A stretch of 64,000 nt of DNA from IMG/VR virus record IMGVR_UViG_3300029939_000002; one strand, 5' to 3'. This DNA is from an uncultured virus (IMG/VR IMGVR_UViG_3300029939_000002) (lineage: Duplodnaviria > Heunggongvirae > Uroviricota > Caudoviricetes). Numbering within the stretch: the stretch's first letter is position 1; each line of letters opens with the position of its first letter. Positions 10,906 through 41,051 of this stretch are shown here, in pieces. The notes beneath the pieces are model-generated. The model saw only the letters and a program-made list of their open reading frames with translations. It searched no databases and was not told the DNA's origin. Position numbers and translations under genes: made by a program.

Positions 10906-12864
10906 TCAGAGACTAAGACCAACTGTAAGACCCATGAATGTATCGAAAAATCCAGGAGGTTTGTCTTCAAGATAAGTCTTAGGATTTGTAAGATATGCCA
11001 TTTGTTTTTCATATGCAAATTGTGCACCAATAGATCGTCTTGGAATATTACGACCAAGACTATCGAACATGACATTATTCGGATCTCGAATAATTGGAAT
11101 TCTATAATTATCTTTAGATGTTTTAAGATAAGATTTGAGGACGATTTCGATATGAGCAAAATTGGTTGTAATTTGTTTATAAACAAGTTCACTAAAATCT
11201 CGTAAGACATCAGAAATAGAGGTATATGAAGCAACACCACTGAGCATAAAATTGCTCAAACTGTTATTAAATTTAACCATACTACTACTCTCAATGGTAT
11301 ATCTCATAATCGGATATTCAGCTGCATTAAACTCATCAAGAGGAATCCAAATCATATTGTCAATAGTACAACGATGGATATTAGCTTTAATGTATTTCAA
11401 GAATTCTAATGAGAAGAACGGGATAATATTGTTCATTGGCATTGTTGCATATTGTGATACAAGTTCACCAGTATCTCCGCGTATAAAGAGCATTTCTGTA
11501 ATACTACTAAAATGTTGTTCGTGAATAAACTTATCATTCTTAATACTATTAAGATCATTTATATTCTTCATATTAATAAAAGGTATACCAACCTTAACTG
11601 GTTTGATATTAAATTCTTCTCTAAGATAAATATCATTTTGTCTAATAAATAGATATTCTTTCATTTGCGGAGGAATACCATAGAGAACAGCATCGGTATT
11701 CGTAAAGTGTTTTGCACTCAACACAAGTTGTGATGCATCACTCATATAGTTTTGTGCAGCTTCTAAACCAATATTTGTAGAGGGTAAGAATTGTGCTGCC
11801 AATGCACCAAGACATACCGCACATGTACCATTGGTGTGATTACATGTAAATGGAGAACGCATGTTAACATATTTACCATAAAAATTAGAGACGTTTTCTC
11901 TATTGATCATAGTGAGAACACCATTTTCATAAATCAATTTACCATCCATTTGTCCTTTACTAGCAATACCAGCATGGATATATACTTGGATAAAACGATC
12001 TGTTCCACAATCACCAGCATATAACTTTTGGATAATAGAACTCTGAATCTGTTGTCTGCGATTACTATATTGGCTATCCGGCATAGCATCCTTATTGTAA
12101 TAGATTGTCTTCTTGCCAGCAAGACTTTCTGTTAAATAAGAGTGTGTGCTGTTTAAACCATCTAAGTAATTTTCAGTAATAGGACGCATAACAATAGTAT
12201 CGTCAGCATCGGTACGATATCCAATACCAACAAAAACCTGACCAATCTGTTTCTTACTCATAGAACCAACTTTAAGAGGAATAGAAAGAATAGTGTCGTT
12301 ATCACTAATCTCTTTAATAAAAGTATCTATTTGATTGGCTATTCTTTTCTCTACATGTTTAATACCAAGACGTTCTTCTTTCTTAATATCATACTTTCTA
12401 TGCTGATCATATTCTTGATCGAATAACATATCACATATTTCAAATGCAGAGCAAGACATTTCGTAAGAACCAAGTTGCCATGACACCATACGATGAATAT
12501 TATTATCACACATACAAATATCATCATTTAGTGTTAAATACTTAAGATCATTTCCTAATTTATCTTTTACATACTCGTTAATATAATTAGGATTTCTTTC
12601 ACGAATAGTATTCTCAATATGTGTTAATACAGCAGTCTGATTTTCTTTAGTGATTATTTTTTCTAATAAACAATGTTTTCTAGAAGGACGGACATTTCTA
12701 TCAACAAGAATTTTCCAAAACCAAACATTTAACATTAAGAACTTTCCAGATATTTCCAATGGACCATCTTCAAGATCCACAAGGAAAATTTCATTCTTAT
12801 TAGCTAATAACTGTTTCGTTAAATCAAAATCTATCTTTGTATTAAAAACATCAAACTTGATCAT
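10906..12864 (-). CDS. Non-virion RNAP beta' C-terminal subunit (phiKZ gp74-like)
   Basis: GDCGT, RSPFTC..GTCAVCLG zinc site, NIGLEAAQ..SQLVLSAKH trigger-loop-like segment, and HIEIVL. Confidence 0.9.
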   Translation of the reverse strand: MIKFDVFNTKIDFDLTKQLLANKNEIFLVDLEDGPLEISGKFLMLNVWFWKILVDRNVRPSRKHCLLEKIITKENQTAVLTHIENTIRERNPNYINEYVKDKLGNDLKYLTLNDDICMCDNNIHRMVSWQLGSYEMSCSAFEICDMLFDQEYDQHRKYDIKKEERLGIKHVEKRIANQIDTFIKEISDNDTILSIPLKVGSMSKKQIGQVFVGIGYRTDADDTIVMRPITENYLDGLNSTHSYLTESLAGKKTIYYNKDAMPDSQYSNRRQQIQSSIIQKLYAGDCGTDRFIQVYIHAGIASKGQMDGKLIYENGVLTMINRENVSNFYGKYVNMRSPFTCNHTNGTCAVCLGALAAQFLPSTNIGLEAAQNYMSDASQLVLSAKHFTNTDAVLYGIPPQMKEYLFIRQNDIYLREEFNIKPVKVGIPFINMKNINDLNSIKNDKFIHEQHFSSITEMLFIRGDTGELVSQYATMPMNNIIPFFSLEFLKYIKANIHRCTIDNMIWIPLDEFNAAEYPIMRYTIESSSMVKFNNSLSNFMLSGVASYTSISDVLRDFSELVYKQITTNFAHIEIVLKSYLKTSKDNYRIPIIRDPNNVMFDSLGRNIPRRSIGAQFAYEKQMAYLTNPKTYLEDKPPGFFDTFMGLTVGLSL

Positions 12865-14951
12865 GGGCTAATAACCTCTTTAAGTTCAGATTCAATCTTA
12901 ATACCTAAAGTTGTAATCATGTGACTGAACAAATTTAAGACACTATTCTTCTTAACAAGTTCTTCATTAGTAATATTGATACGTTCAATATTTGTAGGAT
13001 TCTTATTCTTTAAAATATCAGTAACTAGAACATTAACACCAGTAGGACTGTTTGCATGTAGGCTCGTATAACGAATCATTTCATTTGCATCTTCGCCCAT
13101 ATCCATACCAACAGTTCGCCATTCATCTTCGCCATATTTCAATGCACTAATACGAACCGTATATTGATTTTTAATATTAGGATTAGATGACTTCATAGGA
13201 ACGCCAAATTGATTAACATGACCAACACCAGGTGCTGTCTGATAAGGAACTTTACAAAGCGCGATAACATACTTAGAACCAATACAAACAGGTTTATCCG
13301 ATACGAACTCAGCAATGATATTGCCATCGCTATCAACGCGTTTATAAGATGCTTTAGAAATACCAACTTTATACTTCTTTCTTAAGAAATCAAAATGTTT
13401 CATAGTAATGTGTTTTAAGAACGGAGGCAACCAAATATAAATACCACCTTCATCACTAGTACTTCTTCCAAAATGCACACACTGACTTTTAAAATCTGGA
13501 TTCGTTGCAATAACTTGTTTTAGATAATTAGGATTAAGATCATTATAATACTCAAATAACATATCGATTGCTGATTGTTTATCTGTCTTATATAGCTCAA
13601 CAGCTCTTCGTCTAACAAATTCAGAAATACGATTAATACCTTGTTCTATCCATTGTCCTGTATTCATGCGTGCAATACAAGATGCAGGATCTAAAACAAG
13701 ATCAGCAACAAATCCATCTTCATCAACAGGCATACAGCTCTTTGGAACAATATGTCCAATAACACCTTTCGCACCTTCACGACCAGTAGTTTTATATCCA
13801 AAGGACATATGGCGTTTTTCAATATATGTAACGACAATTCTCATAAATTCGATAGGACGATTATTCCTACCAATAATACCAAGCTTGCATTTTGTATAGA
13901 TATTTTTAACTCGTCTACCTTCAGCAATTAATCGTTTCATACAATCAGAAACTAATCTATTAAAAGCACTTGAGCATTCTAAGTTACGATTCGTCTCATA
14001 AACCTTAACAATTTCTTCACAGTATTTAATATGACTATCAGAATACTTCTTAGCCTGGTCATACCACTTGCCAGAGATTTTAGCACCGCGAGAAATCTGA
14101 ACATCGATATCGATAACTTTAGCGCCTTTATGTGCAACATAACACATATCATGCATAGCCTGAGGTTTTGTTAATTCATTAGGCATTGTATCTGCAATAA
14201 ATGTTTCTGGTGTTGTTTTTCTAAATGCAGAAATAATACCATAATCAGAAATAGTTTCACCAAGATCAGGAAGGAATTTATAGTTAACATCATCACCATA
14301 AAGATTAATCGGGATGTTATTACTTCCGATTACAAAAATCTGTTTATAGATAGCACTAGAACTTAAGTTATCTGCTAATTCATCGGAGATCCACATGGAA
14401 TCTTCAATGATATGGGGAGATGTCATATATGCAACATTAACATTACGACCCATACAGTAAGCACCATCTTTATTAATAGGAGATCTTGAGAGAACAGTTT
14501 CTTTTAAAAGGACTTCACCAGCTCGAAGAGAATGTCTATTGCTTAAAACATTTTCATAACCAAAACCATCAGCAACTTTAGTATATGGACTAACAATAAA
14601 GTGATGGATTTTACAATCATCGAGACCCTTACAGATAACTGTATGTGCCTGCTGAATATAATTGATGTTAGGATACTTTTGAACAACAGCAAGAATAATC
14701 ATATCTTGTTCTCTATGAGTATCATTAATATCAAATTGTCCAAAGTCATATTCTTTACCAGTAAATTGAAATGCAAATTGACTACCATCAACTAAAATAG
14801 TTTGATTGACATGCGAACCGTGCATATCAGTGCGCTGACCAGAACTATTCTTTAAATGAGGATATAAACCAGGCTGTAATCCAAGAATACGACTATCAAC
14901 ACTAACATTATCTAAACTCGGAAACTCTTCGGCGATTTGTAACTTTGACAC
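12861..14951 (-). CDS. Non-virion RNAP beta C-terminal subunit (phiKZ gp71-73-like), uninterrupted
   Basis: MGRNVNVAYM..IEDSMWIS, GYKTTGREGAKGVI, ARMNTGQ and KYGEDE correspond to RpoB conserved regions. Confidence 0.92.
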   Translation of the reverse strand: MSKLQIAEEFPSLDNVSVDSRILGLQPGLYPHLKNSSGQRTDMHGSHVNQTILVDGSQFAFQFTGKEYDFGQFDINDTHREQDMIILAVVQKYPNINYIQQAHTVICKGLDDCKIHHFIVSPYTKVADGFGYENVLSNRHSLRAGEVLLKETVLSRSPINKDGAYCMGRNVNVAYMTSPHIIEDSMWISDELADNLSSSAIYKQIFVIGSNNIPINLYGDDVNYKFLPDLGETISDYGIISAFRKTTPETFIADTMPNELTKPQAMHDMCYVAHKGAKVIDIDVQISRGAKISGKWYDQAKKYSDSHIKYCEEIVKVYETNRNLECSSAFNRLVSDCMKRLIAEGRRVKNIYTKCKLGIIGRNNRPIEFMRIVVTYIEKRHMSFGYKTTGREGAKGVIGHIVPKSCMPVDEDGFVADLVLDPASCIARMNTGQWIEQGINRISEFVRRRAVELYKTDKQSAIDMLFEYYNDLNPNYLKQVIATNPDFKSQCVHFGRSTSDEGGIYIWLPPFLKHITMKHFDFLRKKYKVGISKASYKRVDSDGNIIAEFVSDKPVCIGSKYVIALCKVPYQTAPGVGHVNQFGVPMKSSNPNIKNQYTVRISALKYGEDEWRTVGMDMGEDANEMIRYTSLHANSPTGVNVLVTDILKNKNPTNIERINITNEELVKKNSVLNLFSHMITTLGIKIESELKEVISP

Positions 14952-15989: not shown

Positions 15990-17138
15990 TTATTCTCCCA
16001 TATTCAATGGCATAATAGATGCTGCAACTTCTCCAGCTAGCTGTCCTTGCGAAGAAGGAACGCCAATAACGCCCTGAACCTGATTAAAACATTCAATAAC
16101 TGTATTTATAGTTTTCACCATATCTTCATAAGCAGCAGTATGTCGTTCACCATCACCAGTTCCATTATCTGGAGAGTTACCATTCGCAGTCCCACTCCAA
16201 CTACCATCTAACCCAGATGAGATGGATGAAGCTTTATATTGAGATCCTGGATCTCCAGAATTATAACTTGCAGCTCTAATAGCAGAAGCAACCATCTGTC
16301 CGATGAATTTAGATGAACCAGTTACGCCAAAACAAGGACTATTAAAAACAGTTGAATTTGTAACAGTAAAGTTAACAAAATTAGAGGCGATTTCAAATAT
16401 ACCATCTCCAGAAGTATTTGCAATACTTAGTAGTGGGGAATTTAAAATCATATTTTTACCAGCTGAAATGAGCAATGTTTCTGGTATAATGATTTGCCCA
16501 TTTTTTCCTTGTAAGTTTATCATACAGTCATCGGAGTTTGTTAAAACAACTTGTGGTTTATTACTATCAATACACACTGTATTTCCCAATATATCTCCAA
16601 AATAAGCAGTAGCATTATCCATATCTACTTCTAATTTATAAGATGTAAATTCACCATCACTATTAGCCAATGATATTCTAAAATGTTTTCCTCTTTTTGT
16701 ATCTAATTCAATCAAATAAGTATTTGTATCATCGAGATCATCTTCGCCCTGCCTATTTGCTATTTCTATTCTTAGTGTTTCATTTTTCCGTAGGTATTTA
16801 TCTCGACCATCACAAGACCAAGTAAATTTATCAGAACTTACTCTTCTAACAGTAACCTGTTCGCCTTTCATAACATCAGGAGGATATTTATGATTACCAT
16901 CACCTTCATACGTAGCAGAAATATTATTTGATGTTGTTGTATTAAAAGTTATAGATTTACCAGAAGCATCCATAACCGCAATATTTGCGCTAGAATTCTT
17001 AGCATCGATAGCACCAGTTTGCATTGGTTGTAATTCTGGAATATATACTTTTATAATTACACTATCTTTATCTTTATCTTCTGCAACATAACCATGAAAT
17101 GTTTCTACAGAACTAACTCTATCTTTTGGTTCTGTCAT
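15990..17138 (-). CDS. Baseplate spike/needle-like protein (gp5/VgrG OB-fold plus beta-helix; phiKZ gp164-like)
   Basis: GYVAEDK..IKVYIPE and PPDVMKGEQV N-terminal motifs, followed by short alternating beta-strand repeats. Confidence 0.6.
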   Translation of the reverse strand: MTEPKDRVSSVETFHGYVAEDKDKDSVIIKVYIPELQPMQTGAIDAKNSSANIAVMDASGKSITFNTTTSNNISATYEGDGNHKYPPDVMKGEQVTVRRVSSDKFTWSCDGRDKYLRKNETLRIEIANRQGEDDLDDTNTYLIELDTKRGKHFRISLANSDGEFTSYKLEVDMDNATAYFGDILGNTVCIDSNKPQVVLTNSDDCMINLQGKNGQIIIPETLLISAGKNMILNSPLLSIANTSGDGIFEIASNFVNFTVTNSTVFNSPCFGVTGSSKFIGQMVASAIRAASYNSGDPGSQYKASSISSGLDGSWSGTANGNSPDNGTGDGERHTAAYEDMVKTINTVIECFNQVQGVIGVPSSQGQLAGEVAASIMPLNMGE

Positions 17139-17158
17139 TATGACTTATCCTTTAAAAA

Positions 17159-17187
17159 ATATAAGGAGGGCAACACCCTCCTTATAT
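17159..17187. terminator. Hairpin, 12-bp stem
   Basis: atataaggaggg-caaca-ccctccttatat; followed by a T-run on the minus strand. Confidence 0.65.
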
Positions 17188-17197
17188 CTCATTGGCC

Positions 17198-18490
17198 TTA
17201 TAGGATATTTGGCATTCCGGGAGTTCCGCCAAACGAATTACTCCCAAAATTCGATCCTTCTCCAGCCATAGGGGCGCGATTTAATGGCATCGGTTTTTCG
17301 ATATTGAAACTACCAAAATTACTACTCTGATTAGAACCAAAGTTATTATTATTATTATTATTATTCCCAAATGAACTACCACCACCAAACATGGCTCCAA
17401 ACATACCACCACCATTCTGATTAGATTGATTATTCAAATTAGCAAATGAACCAGTGCTACCAAATCCAGAACCAAACAGATGTTCAGTATATGCATTCTT
17501 AGGTGTACTTAAATTATCACCAAAGAGACTATTTGATTTTGTTAAATTACCAAACATTGAATTTCCAGTACTCTGTTGCTGTTGAGCAGGCTTCTGGACA
17601 ATTCTAGCAACAGAAGAATTGATCTTATTTGCATCTTGTGCAACACTACTAGCAATTTTAATATACTTGGGAAGATTATTAACATGAATGGCAAACTGTG
17701 ACATATTCTTAGTATAAATACCATCAACCATATCAATAATAGGATTGATCTTATCATAGATTTTGTACAATAAATGAACAGTAGAAATCATTCGAGGACA
17801 CGGAGCAACTGGACCATCGAATTCAGGCTTTACATAATACTTTTCTTCAAGTTCATCAATAGTCTTAATATCAAAGATCTTTTCAGTAAGATACATAAGA
17901 ACTGCCCAAGTACCCTTACGGACATTGAACTTTTCTTTATAAGCATCAATGAGTTCTTGCTTACTATTTAAAAGACGAACATTCAAAGTACACATCATAG
18001 TTTTATCGCGATACATAACATCAACAAACATATCAGTTTCATTCTTAAGAATTTTATCAAATTCAACAAGAGTCTTTTCATCGACCTTGTCAACAATACC
18101 ACTAACAAGATTAATTAATTTTGTAGGAATAGTCTTTTCAGATTTATCTTTAGCTTTAACAGCTACTTTGATAAGCTCGCGATAAGCAAATTGAATCCAA
18201 CCAACAGCGCCGCCACGAACAGTTCTATAGAAGAAACGATTAGCAGGATGATCAGTGGTGAGCTCAGCAAACGGGTTAAGCATGAGTGCTTCTTGATCAT
18301 TAAAGACTTCTTGGAATAATAATACATGGCGTTTCTCATCCTTACCAGAAGTAATCTTTATACGATTATCATTAGAATCGATAACATAACCATCATCATC
18401 AGTAGAATAAACAGGCGCAGATAAGTTAATTAAATATCTAAGACAATTCGTAACATCATGGGTTTTAACCATAACAATGTCAGCTGTCAT
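17198..18490 (-). CDS. Conserved core protein (phiKZ gp70 position) with FG/Asn-rich disordered tail
   Basis: DDDGYV..LNPFAE N-terminal motifs and position after the PicA-like gene; 11 FG dipeptides in the last ~120 aa. Confidence 0.7.
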   Translation of the reverse strand: MTADIVMVKTHDVTNCLRYLINLSAPVYSTDDDGYVIDSNDNRIKITSGKDEKRHVLLFQEVFNDQEALMLNPFAELTTDHPANRFFYRTVRGGAVGWIQFAYRELIKVAVKAKDKSEKTIPTKLINLVSGIVDKVDEKTLVEFDKILKNETDMFVDVMYRDKTMMCTLNVRLLNSKQELIDAYKEKFNVRKGTWAVLMYLTEKIFDIKTIDELEEKYYVKPEFDGPVAPCPRMISTVHLLYKIYDKINPIIDMVDGIYTKNMSQFAIHVNNLPKYIKIASSVAQDANKINSSVARIVQKPAQQQQSTGNSMFGNLTKSNSLFGDNLSTPKNAYTEHLFGSGFGSTGSFANLNNQSNQNGGGMFGAMFGGGSSFGNNNNNNNNFGSNQSSNFGSFNIEKPMPLNRAPMAGEGSNFGSNSFGGTPGMPNIL

Positions 18491-18575
18491 TTAAGTCCCC
18501 TTGGATTTTCTGAAGAATAGAAATGGGTTGTCAACAACCCACTCCGGTTTCAATTCTAGAATATGATATCATATT

Positions 18576-20235: not shown

Positions 20236-21375
20236 TTAGACGGTTCGAATGAAATTAGAGCTTGTCAATAACAATAAAGCTAAATCAAAATAAATACAAA
20301 ACCAATCACGTACATTCTCTTCATTATAAACTATAATTACAGCTTCGTCGTTAAACGTCATATGAATACAAATTTTTATTTTACATAATGGATTATTCAT
20401 AAAAGAACAACTAATGTTATTAGCGATATCGATATTGTGTTGTGCATACTTAAGTAATTTTTTTACAATTACTGAAAGTACATCTTTAGGACCATATGCA
20501 TTTCTAAAAGGATACTTTCTATTAAGTCTATCGATACAAATGCTATCGTGATTATCATCTACAAATACGTTACCATTAAGTAATATATAGTTATAATGCA
20601 AATCAGTATATGCCCTTTTCAAAGATATAAACATCATAAAGATATCGTCAAATTGTTTATCATTAACAATAATATTCATTTTGTTACTGATGTCGTATAA
20701 ATCAAATTTATGAAGCTCTGACATATCCAATCCATAATTAGCATTCTGTTTAAAATGATCTAATGTTAAAGGTTCTGTTAATGCAATATTACTTAATGTA
20801 TCACTTATAGGAACTTTAGGAAATATATACCAATTATAATCATCCATAATAGGTCTCTTATTACGTTTTTCTGTATATAAAAAGTTCGTTAATGCAGTCG
20901 TATCATAAAACGTCTGGCTTACAGTATTATAAAAATCTGAATATTTCATATATTGATTTTCTATCTGATATGAATTACTATCAAGTTTATTACAAAATGC
21001 TCTAAGTGGAGTATTATGTTTAAACTTTGTATTTGTTATTGATTTATGAATATTATTAATATGGTTAACAAAGATATAGTCATTTGAATGTGAACCTTCT
21101 TCAATATCATGAAAACTAACATGATACGGATAGTACATCTTATCATCTTTAAAACACAGTCTTTCAATGATAAAAGCTTTACCACATTGATATTCATACT
21201 CTATTAATTTTATAAAACTAGGATATGTTATATTTTGATCAGCTTCAATTTCTAATGGGTCTCCAACAATAGTAGGTTGATAAAATCCACTTATCATTCT
21301 CGTATAACCGAAAGAAGTGCCCGTGAGGACACTTCTATCTCGATCTAAAGAAATATAATTTATAATACTACTCAC
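20236..21375 (-). CDS. Hypothetical protein
   Basis: 379 aa, start overlaps the stop of the gp68-like gene; no recognisable motif. Confidence 0.75.
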   Translation of the reverse strand: MSSIINYISLDRDRSVLTGTSFGYTRMISGFYQPTIVGDPLEIEADQNITYPSFIKLIEYEYQCGKAFIIERLCFKDDKMYYPYHVSFHDIEEGSHSNDYIFVNHINNIHKSITNTKFKHNTPLRAFCNKLDSNSYQIENQYMKYSDFYNTVSQTFYDTTALTNFLYTEKRNKRPIMDDYNWYIFPKVPISDTLSNIALTEPLTLDHFKQNANYGLDMSELHKFDLYDISNKMNIIVNDKQFDDIFMMFISLKRAYTDLHYNYILLNGNVFVDDNHDSICIDRLNRKYPFRNAYGPKDVLSVIVKKLLKYAQHNIDIANNISCSFMNNPLCKIKICIHMTFNDEAVIIVYNEENVRDWFCIYFDLALLLLTSSNFIRTV

Positions 21376-29521: not shown

Positions 29522-31108
29522 TTACAGGTACATGCCGCCGAGACCACCTTCGACAGTATTGGCACCCATGCTCAGACGAGCCTCGCTATAGCCCTTGGCC
29601 ATATCGATCAGCCAGTTGGTGTTACTGCTGCTGGTATTGCTGTTGGACTGCTTGATGGTCACGCCGTTGTTGATAGCATTGACCAGGGCCTGCACAAAAG
29701 ACGGCTTCAGGATGCTGACAATGTTGTACGACAGCGGAATGAACTTCGAATGCTTGGCGACAATCGAAGCCTGGTAATGCTGGTTCTCATAGACGTCCAG
29801 CAGGTTCGAGATTTCCTCAGCAGGATATCCCTTACCGCTGACCAGTGACATATAGTCGACGACGCGACTATCGGTCGGGCTGTCAGGGTAGTTGACGATG
29901 CCGGTGATGACCGTCGAAGCGACCGAAAAGATGTCGCTATTGCCATCATACGGCTTGCCCATAAAGTCACTGAAGGCATCGATGACCCGCTTGTTGTTGC
30001 CATCGTCCATGAACAGCTTGAGCATGGACAGCGTCGGAACGCCAGGGATGTTATCGATAGCCAGAACAGGAGTCAAGCAGGCGATCTGGACGAACTGCTT
30101 AACGTCGTCCATGTTGTCGCACGACATCAGTTCATTGCGGCTGTTGTCCAGAACATCCGGCATCAGGCGGCCGAGGTTCGGCTTTCCGCTTTCGAATGAA
30201 GTATAAGGCGACAGCCACAGACCATCATAGAGGAACTTCGACCCACCCAGGCCGATGGCGAGAGGAGCGAAGGCATTGATCGGCATGATCGAGAACACAG
30301 AAGAAATGTGCACGATCGGAGCCAGAACATGCGGAAGCTTTTCGCGAGCCAATGAGTTGTTCGGAGGATTGGTCCGAACGAAGCTGGTGTAGCCGCCGAC
30401 GACGAACAGCTGTTTCGGTTCCGTCGGTTCGTTGTTGGAGACCGACAGTTCGTCACGAACAGGAGAGCTGACAACGATGCCGTAGTCGAAACGCGGCTTG
30501 GTCACGAACGGCCAATGGCGATCGTAGTAGTTGTGGACTTCAGCCAACGACGTCGAGATCGTCAAGGTCGAACCCTTGAAGAAGCTGATCGACCCGTAGA
30601 CATCCAGATTGCCAGGCTTGTTCGCCGAGAACGTAGACCGCAGATGGGCGATGATGGCGCCGACGCGAGTTTCGTTCTGGTAGTCTTCGGGAATGACGAT
30701 GGCATTCTGAATGATGGTGCAATTCGCGAAATCAGCTTCGAGGCGCTTGCGAACGCTCGGGAAATAAGCGATGAACGCCTTGCGCTTGAATTCAAGAGTT
30801 CCGAACTGAACGCCCATGTCGGGGAACAGCAGAACATAGAACATGTTGTCGACCATCACCGCCAGAGTGTTGGACGGCTCAGGGATGCGAACGACCTTGG
30901 CGCCGGGGATTTCCTTTTCCATACGCTCGACGAACTTCGATAGCTGCGGGGACTGCGTCGAGAAGCTGTCAAATTCGGACAATGAACTGTGCAGGAGAGA
31001 ACGCTTCTTTTCCTGCTGAGAATTGCTGAAACCAGGAGCCTGCTTTTCGCCCTGCGGAGCCTTGGGAGAATCGCTTTCCTGAGTACCAAAACCGGAAACA
31101 CTAGACAT
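29522..31108 (-). CDS. chmA: Chimallin (phage nuclear shell protein), divergent
   Basis: Immediately upstream of beta'-N, the canonical position. Disordered termini, ordered motifs PRFDYGI / VGGYTSFV / PIVHISS / LAI..W / NLGRL, GC-rich codons and its own terminator. Confidence 0.72.
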   Translation of the reverse strand: MSSVSGFGTQESDSPKAPQGEKQAPGFSNSQQEKKRSLLHSSLSEFDSFSTQSPQLSKFVERMEKEIPGAKVVRIPEPSNTLAVMVDNMFYVLLFPDMGVQFGTLEFKRKAFIAYFPSVRKRLEADFANCTIIQNAIVIPEDYQNETRVGAIIAHLRSTFSANKPGNLDVYGSISFFKGSTLTISTSLAEVHNYYDRHWPFVTKPRFDYGIVVSSPVRDELSVSNNEPTEPKQLFVVGGYTSFVRTNPPNNSLAREKLPHVLAPIVHISSVFSIMPINAFAPLAIGLGGSKFLYDGLWLSPYTSFESGKPNLGRLMPDVLDNSRNELMSCDNMDDVKQFVQIACLTPVLAIDNIPGVPTLSMLKLFMDDGNNKRVIDAFSDFMGKPYDGNSDIFSVASTVITGIVNYPDSPTDSRVVDYMSLVSGKGYPAEEISNLLDVYENQHYQASIVAKHSKFIPLSYNIVSILKPSFVQALVNAINNGVTIKQSNSNTSSSNTNWLIDMAKGYSEARLSMGANTVEGGLGGMYL

Positions 31109-39860: not shown

Positions 39861-41051
39861 ATGTCTATGTCAACACCCATAGTTATTCAAGGTATTTTTC
39901 AAAGATTAAATGCCACACAAGCAGATTGGAATAATACATCAGTTCCTATTCCATATGGTCTAATTACTATAGATAGTAGCACGGGTATCATTAAAATAGG
40001 TGATGGTGTTACACTTTATGCCAATTTAAAAACATTATGTAATATAAATGATTATATTAATCTTTTCAATATTTTAAATTCGAAAGCCGATACAACCAAT
40101 GCTACCTTTACAGAAAGTTGTAATGTTCCAGATCTTGCTACTGATAATAATTCATCTGGCGCTGCCAATACCAGGTTTGTGAATGCTGCTATCACAACAG
40201 CTCTATCAGAGATTACACAGACAGTTGGTACTGGACAATCAGATTTAACAAACGAACTTGTTACATTCGAACAATCAGTTGATAGCAGTATTGCTCAGAT
40301 TATACAAGATTTAAATAGTTATGAAAAAATCACCGATCTTGATACTACATTATTGGATTATGTCACTTTAGATGCATTAAATAAAATATTGGCTGAATAT
40401 AGCCCTGCTGGCGATTATGTCATGTCTGATAATATTAGTACATATTTAACTGATTATGTAACAAATAAAATACTAACAGCAACTTTACAGAACTATGTAA
40501 CGAATACTGCATTAGCTACAGCTTTAGCAAACATTGATCTTTCCGAATATGTATCAACGACAGTATTAAATACTACATTAGAAGATTATACATCTAATGT
40601 GAGTGCAAATTCCAATACTCCATTTAATTCTATTCGGGTTGTTGGTACTGGAACAACACCGGCTGATAAATTTATTGATGCTAGTAATGGCTATTTCAGA
40701 ATTATGGACAATACCGATGCTGGAAATGCACTAATGACTATTGATACTTCTGGTAACTTAGTGGCACTGGCAAATCTTACTGCATATTCTGATATTAAAT
40801 TAAAGAAAGATTTAAAAGTTATTGAGGATTCTATCAGTAAGATTAAACAATTGACTGGATATACATACACTCGTATAGATACTGGAGAACGCCAGTCTGG
40901 TCTTATTGCCCAGGATATTCAAAAGGTTTTACCAGAAGTTGTCATTAATAATAATGATACATTAAGTGTTGCTTATGGAAATATGATGGGTATTATTGTA
41001 GAAGCAATAAAAGATATAGATAGACGATTGTCAATTATAGAAAATAAATGA
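39861..41051 (+). CDS. Tail fibre with C-terminal intramolecular chaperone (peptidase S74)
   Basis: Paralogous N-terminus (IKIGDG); AYSDIKLK..GLIAQD..VLPEVV..LSVAY..VEAIK is the S74 signature. Confidence 0.88.
   Translation: MSMSTPIVIQGIFQRLNATQADWNNTSVPIPYGLITIDSSTGIIKIGDGVTLYANLKTLCNINDYINLFNILNSKADTTNATFTESCNVPDLATDNNSSGAANTRFVNAAITTALSEITQTVGTGQSDLTNELVTFEQSVDSSIAQIIQDLNSYEKITDLDTTLLDYVTLDALNKILAEYSPAGDYVMSDNISTYLTDYVTNKILTATLQNYVTNTALATALANIDLSEYVSTTVLNTTLEDYTSNVSANSNTPFNSIRVVGTGTTPADKFIDASNGYFRIMDNTDAGNALMTIDTSGNLVALANLTAYSDIKLKKDLKVIEDSISKIKQLTGYTYTRIDTGERQSGLIAQDIQKVLPEVVINNNDTLSVAYGNMMGIIVEAIKDIDRRLSIIENK

Follow-up and report, generated by a model that had tools for sequence, protein, structure and literature searches.

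A divergent gp70/gp64-family protein with a Phe-Gly-rich, low-charge C-terminal tail, encoded next to a PicA-like gene in a likely nucleus-forming phage

The 64,000-nucleotide stretch of DNA from an uncultured virus of the Caudoviricetes (IMG/VR record IMGVR_UViG_3300029939_000002), the whole of which we call the window, carries on its minus strand the gene P0001 (17198..18490), a single open frame of 430 amino acids (aa) that encodes a divergent member of the family of phiKZ gp70, PhiPA3 gp64 and 201phi2-1 gp126. Its N-terminal part, aa 1 to about 290 (17621..18490, minus strand), is predicted to be a folded domain of mixed helices and strands. The tail, aa 300-430 (17201..17593, minus strand), is low in charge, predicted to be disordered, and contains 11 Phe-Gly (FG) dipeptides together with a run of eight Asn (N8), and the protein ends in the peptide PGMPNIL (17201..17221, minus strand), a motif common to a subset of the family. 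The gene adjoins one for a PicA/Imp1-like protein, P0002. A sequence-only reading of this DNA had listed the 11 FG motifs with their contexts, the N8 run, and the low-charge spacers rich in Asn, Ser, Gly and Gln, of which our recount reproduced the motifs and contexts exactly and also found the N8 run, and had proposed that the tail supplies a nucleoporin-like selectivity barrier or condensate at PicA import sites.

The FG dipeptides begin at positions 313, 323, 339, 343, 364, 368, 374, 384, 392, 415, and 420, in the contexts SMFG, SLFG, HLFG, SGFG, GMFG, AMFG, SSFG, NNFG, SNFG, SNFG, and NSFG, so that two of the 11 are LFG, three MFG, three NFG, two SFG, and one GFG. Within the last 131 aa, Gly follows 11 of the 13 Phe, while shuffled tails are expected to contain 2.28 FG and none of 100,000 shuffles reached 11; the background rate in the other long open reading frames (ORFs) of the window is Gly after 43 of 791 Phe. 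There is about one FG per 10.7 aa over the 131-aa tail, which holds 25 Asn, 23 Gly, 18 Ser, and 13 Phe (19% Asn, 16-18% Gly, 14% Ser), with Asn, Gln, Ser, Gly, and Thr together making up 60% and charged residues only nine of the 131 (7%; five Lys/Arg and four Asp/Glu). P0001 stands alone in this respect: all other ORFs, both in the window and in the other 40 kb of the ~104-kb contig, stay at two FG or fewer in any 60 aa. Slippage of a short DNA repeat was considered as the origin of the pattern and rejected, because Tandem Repeats Finder detected, besides the (TTA)7.7 run behind N8, no more than a weak near-duplication (24 nt x1.9). The identical P0001 protein is recorded from 21 contigs, and a fragment on another contig carries the same tail. 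The FG observation on P0001 is confirmed.

Profile searches, profile-profile alignment, fold matches, and synteny show that P0001 is a divergent gp70-family member. An exhaustive phmmer search of a library clustered at 50% identity, with P0001 aa 1-300 as the query, returned 249 homologues at E<=1e-3, 97 of which reach E<=1e-10. Our family analyses rest on the best 150 of the 249, which are mostly 350-520 aa long and whose first ~285 residues can be aligned to P0001. When a hidden Markov model (HMM) of the heads, built from 146 homologues and P0001, was run against 149 ORFs of the 201phi2-1 and Proteus phage 10 loci, the ORFs at the gp70 position alone matched (201phi2-1 gp126, E 1.7e-8; the Proteus phage 10 counterpart, E 2.5e-9; next ORF, E 0.69). 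A 128-row alignment of P0001 was paired by hhalign with gp126 at a probability of 95% (E 4e-8, 196 columns), and both gp126 and its Proteus phage 10 counterpart fall into phrog_3520 (E 1e-125 and 1e-112). P0001 thus resembles phiKZ gp70, PhiPA3 gp64, and 201phi2-1 gp126 (phrog_3520) in its locus directly after PicA, its homologous N-terminal domain, and its length, and, like the phiKZ gp70/PhiPA3 gp64 family, it has a C-terminal tail of low complexity closed by a short hydrophobic peptide. However, its sequence is too divergent from the family for BLASTP, tblastn, or a direct PHROG scan. BLASTP was not significant for P0001 with gp126 or the Proteus phage 10 protein, nor for P0002 with the PicA-like protein of Proteus phage 10, and neither P0001 nor P0002 had a tblastn match among 50,697 phage records. 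A word-index homologue search found nothing for P0001 and only the protein itself or a fragment for P0002 and P0159. A search for related loci with the single P0001 sequence gave none, and one with a 20-row P0001 alignment gave three (contigs L005, L006, and L007).

The neighbouring P0002 (18576..20216, minus strand, 546 aa) lies directly upstream of P0001; its residues 31-265 match phrog_3141 at E 3e-5, compared with E 1.5e-163 for 201phi2-1 gp125, and hhalign of P0002 with three syntenic relatives against gp125 gave 93.5% (E 2.4e-7, 444 columns). Judged by its sequence, P0002 is a divergent PicA/Imp1. Along the minus strand, an SbcD-like gene, a phrog_3229 gene, a ChmC-like gene, a phrog_3209 gene, an extra gene of 379 aa, and the PicA-like gene precede P0001, which is followed by a baseplate-like extra gene, a 164-aa gene, two RNA polymerase (RNAP) beta-like genes, and a helicase gene. 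The order SbcD, gp66, ChmC, gp68, PicA, gp70, and RNAP parallels phiKZ gp65-gp75 as annotated in 201phi2-1, and the gene order around P0001 also matches Proteus phage 10 and is kept, extras included, in L005, L006, and L007. The sequence-only reading was therefore correct in placing a gp70-like gene beside a PicA-like importer, since the family and fold matches, the synteny with a conserved chimallivirus block, and the homology of P0002 with gp125 all agree. Its remark that the PicA-like protein itself ends in a short FG- and Asn-rich tail stands only in part: the last 42 aa of P0002 are indeed N-rich and contain two FG (shuffle p = 0.06), but the stretch is 24% charged and lineage-specific, none of the three related PicA-like proteins having it.

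AlphaFold2 with the 128-row alignment gave 246 residues at a predicted local distance difference test score (pLDDT) of at least 90 and was confident to about residue 285. In the tail, the block-mean pLDDT falls to 32-54, and beyond about residue 290 the model has no secondary structure. From the P0001 sequence alone, AlphaFold gave a pLDDT of 32.5 and no usable model. A fold search of BFVD with the N-terminal domain found 13 matches at E<=1e-3, most of them unnamed, and those that were named are uncharacterised proteins of jumbo phages, including PhiEaH1, RSF1, RP12, and Miami. Foldseek against the PDB with the same domain found no match at E<=1e-3, and a wide VIA-align search of the PDB did not get past Z 4.4, a score too low to be meaningful, for integrase core-binding domains. 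Complex prediction with two copies of the N-terminal domain scored 0.00 in both runs, which were made without control runs and speak neither for nor against self-association.

How far the FG richness extends was examined in the tails of 146 homologues of at least 340 aa, taken from residue 291 onward as a fixed boundary; P0035, P0048, P0108, and P0131 (each <340 aa) were left out of all tail counts. There was no FG in 72 of these tails, one in 45, two in 13, three in 11, four in 4, and five in 1, as against 11 in P0001, and the FG density per 100 aa was 7.9 in P0001, 4.3 in the next-best tail, and 0.5 at the family median. The ten known phages (phiKZ, PhiPA3, Goslar, and seven others) have 0-1 FG per tail. 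The tail of P0001 is rich in Phe, Gly, Asn, and Ser, whereas those of phiKZ gp70 and PhiPA3 gp64 are Met/Gln/Ala-rich (14-15% Met) and contain no FG at all. FG richness is not a gp70-family trait. The sequence-only reading had made Phe or FG enrichment in orthologous tails the test of its proposal, and this enrichment is largely absent, given that 72 of the 146 tails lack the motif, as do phiKZ gp70 and PhiPA3 gp64, and that the median Phe content of the tails is only 2.7%.

The tails are 57-232 aa long and range in composition from Met/Gln-rich through Leu/Gly repeats to Arg/Asp/Glu-rich. That of SEGD1 has LLGG-type repeats, and that of an EL-like phage has GM/MG runs. Low charge is common to most of them, with a median of 5% charged residues in tails versus 26% in heads and no more than 10% in 121 of the 146 tails. 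A gp70 homologue of phage Churi (OM718002.1, 207069-207956) bears the database annotation "Med15 subunit of mediator complex protein", a label that most likely reflects its Gln/Met-rich low-complexity tail and not homology. Outside short motifs the family tails do not align. PGMP occurs within the last 14 aa in 23 of the 146 homologues and elsewhere in three, P0001 ending in TPGMPNIL, and the looser [PG]G[MLVI]P is found in C-terminal position in 32 of the 146; the motif aligns in alignment A2. Two further motifs recur in tails of the closer homologues, "PG x4-7 DG[R/T/W..]" in 28 of the 146 and "PF[SDN][GP]PY" in 12; they lie in the region of A2 columns ~410-430 / ~540-560 and do not occur in P0001. 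Several proteins of the shell block (P0001, P0002, 201phi2-1 gp125 and gp126, phiKZ gp70, and PhiPA3 gp64) have Gly-rich sequence followed by a few mainly hydrophobic C-terminal residues (PGMPNIL, DDDLIL, NLGLL, GMGLI, MMGRLL, GGLGLL), and this may be a common docking peptide. The idea that the peptide mimics the chimallin tail was dropped, as 201phi2-1 ChmA ends in GPSSFY and gp126 in GNGMGLI, with no evident likeness.

Base composition plausibly accounts for part of the appearance of the P0001 tail. With head composition as a proxy for AT-richness, Asn (rho 0.51) and Ser (0.25) in the tails rise and Pro (-0.37) and Ala (-0.42) fall, and because tail Asn and Ser follow the proxy in this way, the Asn/Ser spacers of P0001 are plausibly a base-composition effect. 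The Phe-Gly pairing in P0001 is not: FG density is unrelated to the proxy (rho 0.05), and FG as a by-product of AT-rich codon bias was rejected on this ground. Gly is kept at 16% in the P0001 tail despite a genome of 34% GC. Among the relatives, the AT-rich L007 (33% GC) has FG at five of eight Phe, and the two at 39-41% GC have 0 and 1 FG.

The GLFG class of nucleoporins (Nup98/Nup100/Nup116) is characterized by dense FG motifs, low charge, N/S/G/Q-rich spacers, and disorder. P0001 resembles it in having an FG about every 11 residues, 7% charge, N/S/G/Q-rich spacers, and predicted disorder, so that a dense FG array in a low-charge domain, as used to define the FG-nucleoporin class, is present, the disorder being a prediction. 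Nucleoporin_FG (PF13634) was the sole family in a Pfam scan of the tail at E<=10, with E 0.46 and 11.8 bits, which falls short of its gathering threshold of 32.2 bits. The nearest ESM-Atlas clusters were Nucleoporin_FG (0.81), Nup42 (0.81 and 0.79), and NUP98A (0.78), all of them below the similarity of 0.9 under which a match is a lead only. Accordingly, the nucleoporin-like composition claimed in the sequence-only reading is borne out by what ranks first in Pfam and Atlas, but by no score that reaches significance. The differences from GLFG nucleoporins are also considerable: only two of the 11 motifs are LFG, the array is confined to one domain of 131 aa in a phage protein, there is no homology, and the FG motif is not kept among P0001 orthologues. 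The phage nucleus is not known to have a pore scaffold, channel, or transport receptors. The resemblance is one of composition, not of kinship. A similar likeness in composition only links the whole gp70 family to Met- or aromatic-rich prion-like domains, which share its low charge, its Gln/Asn/Gly/Ser/Pro spacers, and its regularly placed hydrophobic stickers.

In the accessible text of the study of PhiPA3 gp64, the protein is localised to the nuclear shell, present in ChmB pull-downs, and expressed early, and its gene lies in a conserved block with gp61 and gp63; the word "disordered" is not used there (PMC10643120). In co-expression pull-downs described in the available part of a preprint, Imp1 bound gp67 and not phiKZ gp70 (bioRxiv 10.1101/2024.03.27.586873), which tells against the tie to PicA import sites that the sequence-only reading had drawn. 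In the portion available of an antisense oligonucleotide (ASO) screen, the tabulated hits go from 065-069 to 075 and leave out phiKZ 070, which was possibly unscreened (PMC12571901), and orf70 is not named among the genes free of transposon (Tn) insertions in the accessible part of a transposon study. The closest precedent in the block is ChmC (PhiPA3 gp61/phiKZ gp67/Imp6), which like P0001 has a folded domain and a disordered C-terminal tail, shell association being on record for PhiPA3 gp64 of the gp70 family. According to the accessible part of the report, RNA stimulates the formation of condensates by ChmC, and phase separation is predicted to be driven by the disordered C-terminus of the protein (bioRxiv 10.1101/2023.09.22.559000). 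However, ChmC is an unrelated protein, and its condensates with RNA depend largely on positive charge, as RNA-binding mutants indicate in the part of the published work available, while the P0001 tail is nearly uncharged and hydrophobic. We found no literature linking the phage nucleus to FG repeats in a search that did not extend to the final Imp paper or the preprint supplements, and only general reviews, none on the gp70/gp64 protein, linking it to nucleoporins.

On balance, we lean slightly towards the view that P0001 is a gp70/gp64 orthologue whose tail is a lineage-specific Phe-Gly version of a cohesive, low-charge tail typical of most of the family, making weak contacts at the shell. 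P0001 would then have three working parts: the folded N-terminal domain of ~290 aa, a disordered low-charge tail of stickers and spacers, and the short C-terminal PGMP peptide. The N-terminal domain or the terminal peptide would place the protein at the phage nuclear shell, and the tail would bind weakly, through many hydrophobic contacts, to itself or to partners, thereby concentrating or holding factors there. In most lineages, the stickers would be Met and Tyr set in Pro, Gln, and Gly; in the AT-rich source phage, they would be nearly all Phe, each followed by Gly and set in Asn, Ser, and Gly, hence the GLFG-nucleoporin look. The FG pattern would be one chemical solution to this holding task and not a conserved pore barrier. 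What suggests weak multivalent contacts at the shell is the composition, a homologue reported to localise there, and the precedent of ChmC. Consistent with stickers of varying identity, the 146 tails contain 475 [FYWM]G (283 expected), 554 G[FYWM] (282 expected), and 114 FG (54 expected), with 318 of the control dipeptide PG (333 expected), where expectations come from whole-tail shuffles, a null that leaves the excess open to inflation by local G-rich patches.

This last caveat is one of several points that weigh against the reading. The share of Phe, Tyr, Met, and Trp in the tails is fairly constant (median 0.14, quartiles 0.115-0.167, P0001 0.143), but the constancy is weak evidence of constraint because the folded heads have nearly the same share (median 0.123). 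The RSF1 tail is 65% charged and the Goslar and SEGD1 tails 15-16%, and since the tails are non-uniform in this respect, a single tail function across the family is doubtful. The assignment of P0001 itself bridges a considerable distance, its closest phmmer homologue being 35% identical and a direct hmmscan against PHROGs, including phrog_3520, giving nothing at E<=1e-3. The same preprint that reports the Imp1 pull-downs lists phiKZ gp70, in the part available, as a nuclear and not a shell protein (bioRxiv 10.1101/2024.03.27.586873). In a search of the 104.6-kb record, itself about 46% complete, the chimallin family phrog_4795 had no match. We nevertheless regard the source phage as likely nucleus-forming and chimallivirus-like.

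The alternatives differ in how much work they assign to the tail. If it were a flexible spacer drifting in composition, with the N-terminal domain and terminal peptide doing the work and the FG pattern functionless, then the wide variation in tail length and composition, the lack of alignment outside short motifs, and the shift of Asn/Ser and Pro/Ala with the AT proxy would all be expected. We consider this unlikely. A pure spacer is hard to square with the pairing of 11 of 13 Phe with Gly, which arises neither from composition (0 of 100,000 shuffles) nor from DNA repeats, and the independence of FG density from the AT proxy, the Gly content kept up in a GC-poor genome, the low charge of 121 of the 146 tails, and the family-wide excess of hydrophobics beside Gly also speak against it. 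At the other extreme stands the proposal of the sequence-only reading that FG tails at the PicA sites of the phage nuclear shell build a selective, nucleoporin-like phase or condensate, admitting licensed cargo and excluding the rest, in convergence with the eukaryotic FG barrier. The 11 FG in 131 low-charge, predicted-disordered residues, the nucleoporin families ranking first in Pfam and Atlas, the adjacent PicA-like gene, the shell localisation of PhiPA3 gp64 (PMC10643120, accessible text), the second AT-rich relative with FG at five of eight Phe, and the doubled FG count across the family speak for it. Yet we hold it to be distinctly improbable, given that FG richness is not conserved (no FG in 72 of 146 tails, a maximum of five, and 0-1 in ten known phages), that Imp1 co-purified gp67 and not phiKZ gp70 in the work available, that the Pfam and Atlas scores are sub-threshold and reflect composition only, that P0001 is the sole FG-dense protein on the 104-kb contig, and that phiKZ 070, although possibly unscreened, is missing from the ASO hits and, in the accessible text, from the named Tn-free genes.

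A location inside the nucleus is also conceivable, where P0001 would act with the non-virion RNA polymerase (nvRNAP) and its tail, like the Gln/Met-rich regions of co-activators, would gather polymerase or nucleic acid. The gene does sit inside the nvRNAP gene cluster, the preprint portion cited above counts phiKZ gp70 among nuclear proteins, and the Churi homologue bears the Med15 label, itself most likely compositional. But PhiPA3 gp64 was scored as shell-localised and recovered in ChmB pull-downs (PMC10643120, in the text available), the published nvRNAP subunit lists, as far as accessible, do not include gp70, and fold searches with the N-terminal domain turned up no nucleic-acid-binding fold, its best PDB match staying below a meaningful level. 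We therefore rate this as very unlikely.

On how folded proteins and mRNA cross the chimallin shell, published accounts, in their accessible part, name PicA/Imp1 and its partners and no channel or physical mechanism. A conserved, shell-associated protein encoded beside PicA, whose tail is low-charge and sticky in most lineages and converges on nuclear-pore FG chemistry in one, bears on this question, and the P0001 tail yields a concrete and cheap hypothesis for phiKZ, PhiPA3, or Goslar. The boldest form of it is that the gp70/gp64 family constitutes a cohesive, low-charge hydrophobic shell phase in the selective passage of protein or mRNA, with Met-Gly, Tyr-Gly, Leu-Gly, or Phe-Gly stickers according to lineage. 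We believe this to be distinctly improbable; if true, P0001 would provide a convergent nucleoporin-like FG domain, the first in a virus of bacteria. If the tail is only a spacer, the FG finding would be a compositional curiosity. What survives of the sequence-only proposal is a broader and weaker notion, that of a family-wide cohesive, low-charge, hydrophobic tail of which P0001 has the Phe/Gly version.

Other genes of the window fit the chimallivirus block. The ChmC/Imp6-like P0158 (23103..23732, minus strand, 209 aa) is in the syntenic position, has a short G-rich end, and matches phrog_3284 at E 2.7e-5 (201phi2-1 gp123, E 4.3e-75). Two RNAP beta/beta'-like genes (10906..14951, minus strand) occupy the phiKZ gp71-73 and gp74 positions and match phrog_3295 (E 1e-114) and phrog_3015 (E 2e-84); with the RNAP-like genes, tblastn found matches in 292 phage records, the top-listed of which are large (jumbo) phage genomes. 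The slot upstream of the gp55-like RNAP gene is one that we take to be the chimallin position in phiKZ-like phages. Here it holds a 528-aa protein (29522-31108, minus strand) directly upstream of the gp55-like subunit (phrog_2987), with a low-complexity N-terminus and the end GGLGGMYL. This candidate by synteny had no PHROG, Pfam, BLASTP, or Atlas support, and the word-index search found no homologues of it.

Two genes of the block are extra with respect to 201phi2-1. Between P0001 and the RNAP genes, a 382-aa protein (15990-17138, minus strand) matches the PHROG "baseplate assembly protein" phrog_3216 at E 5e-40; ORFs of 349-385 aa fill the same slot in L005 (6251-7300), L006 (6455-7612), and L007 (6312-7460), and 201phi2-1 has two small ORFs only. 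Between the gp68-position and PicA-like genes, the 379-aa gene (20236-21375, minus strand) matches neither a PHROG nor a Pfam family. By position, its slot is filled with ORFs of comparable length (371-404 aa) in L005 (1930-3066), L006 (2275-3390), and L007 (2142-3356), and it is empty in 201phi2-1 and Proteus phage 10. Further away, a 396-aa protein (39861-41051, plus strand) has a C-terminal domain matching the distal subunit of the T4-type long tail fibre (phrog_21722, E 3e-34), which on this match places a module of the tail-fibre tip in a genome of the phiKZ type.

Directly 3' of the P0001 stop codon lies a terminator-like hairpin with a U run (17156..17190, minus strand), which in the RNA fold of 17139-17200 (minus strand) has a 16-bp stem of -23 kcal/mol followed by UUUUUU; it is not among the entries of a consensus terminator scan. 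A second terminator-like hairpin of 11 pairs (18520-18545, minus strand) lies between the PicA-like stop and the P0001 start. With one hairpin on either side, the P0001 gene may be its own transcription unit.

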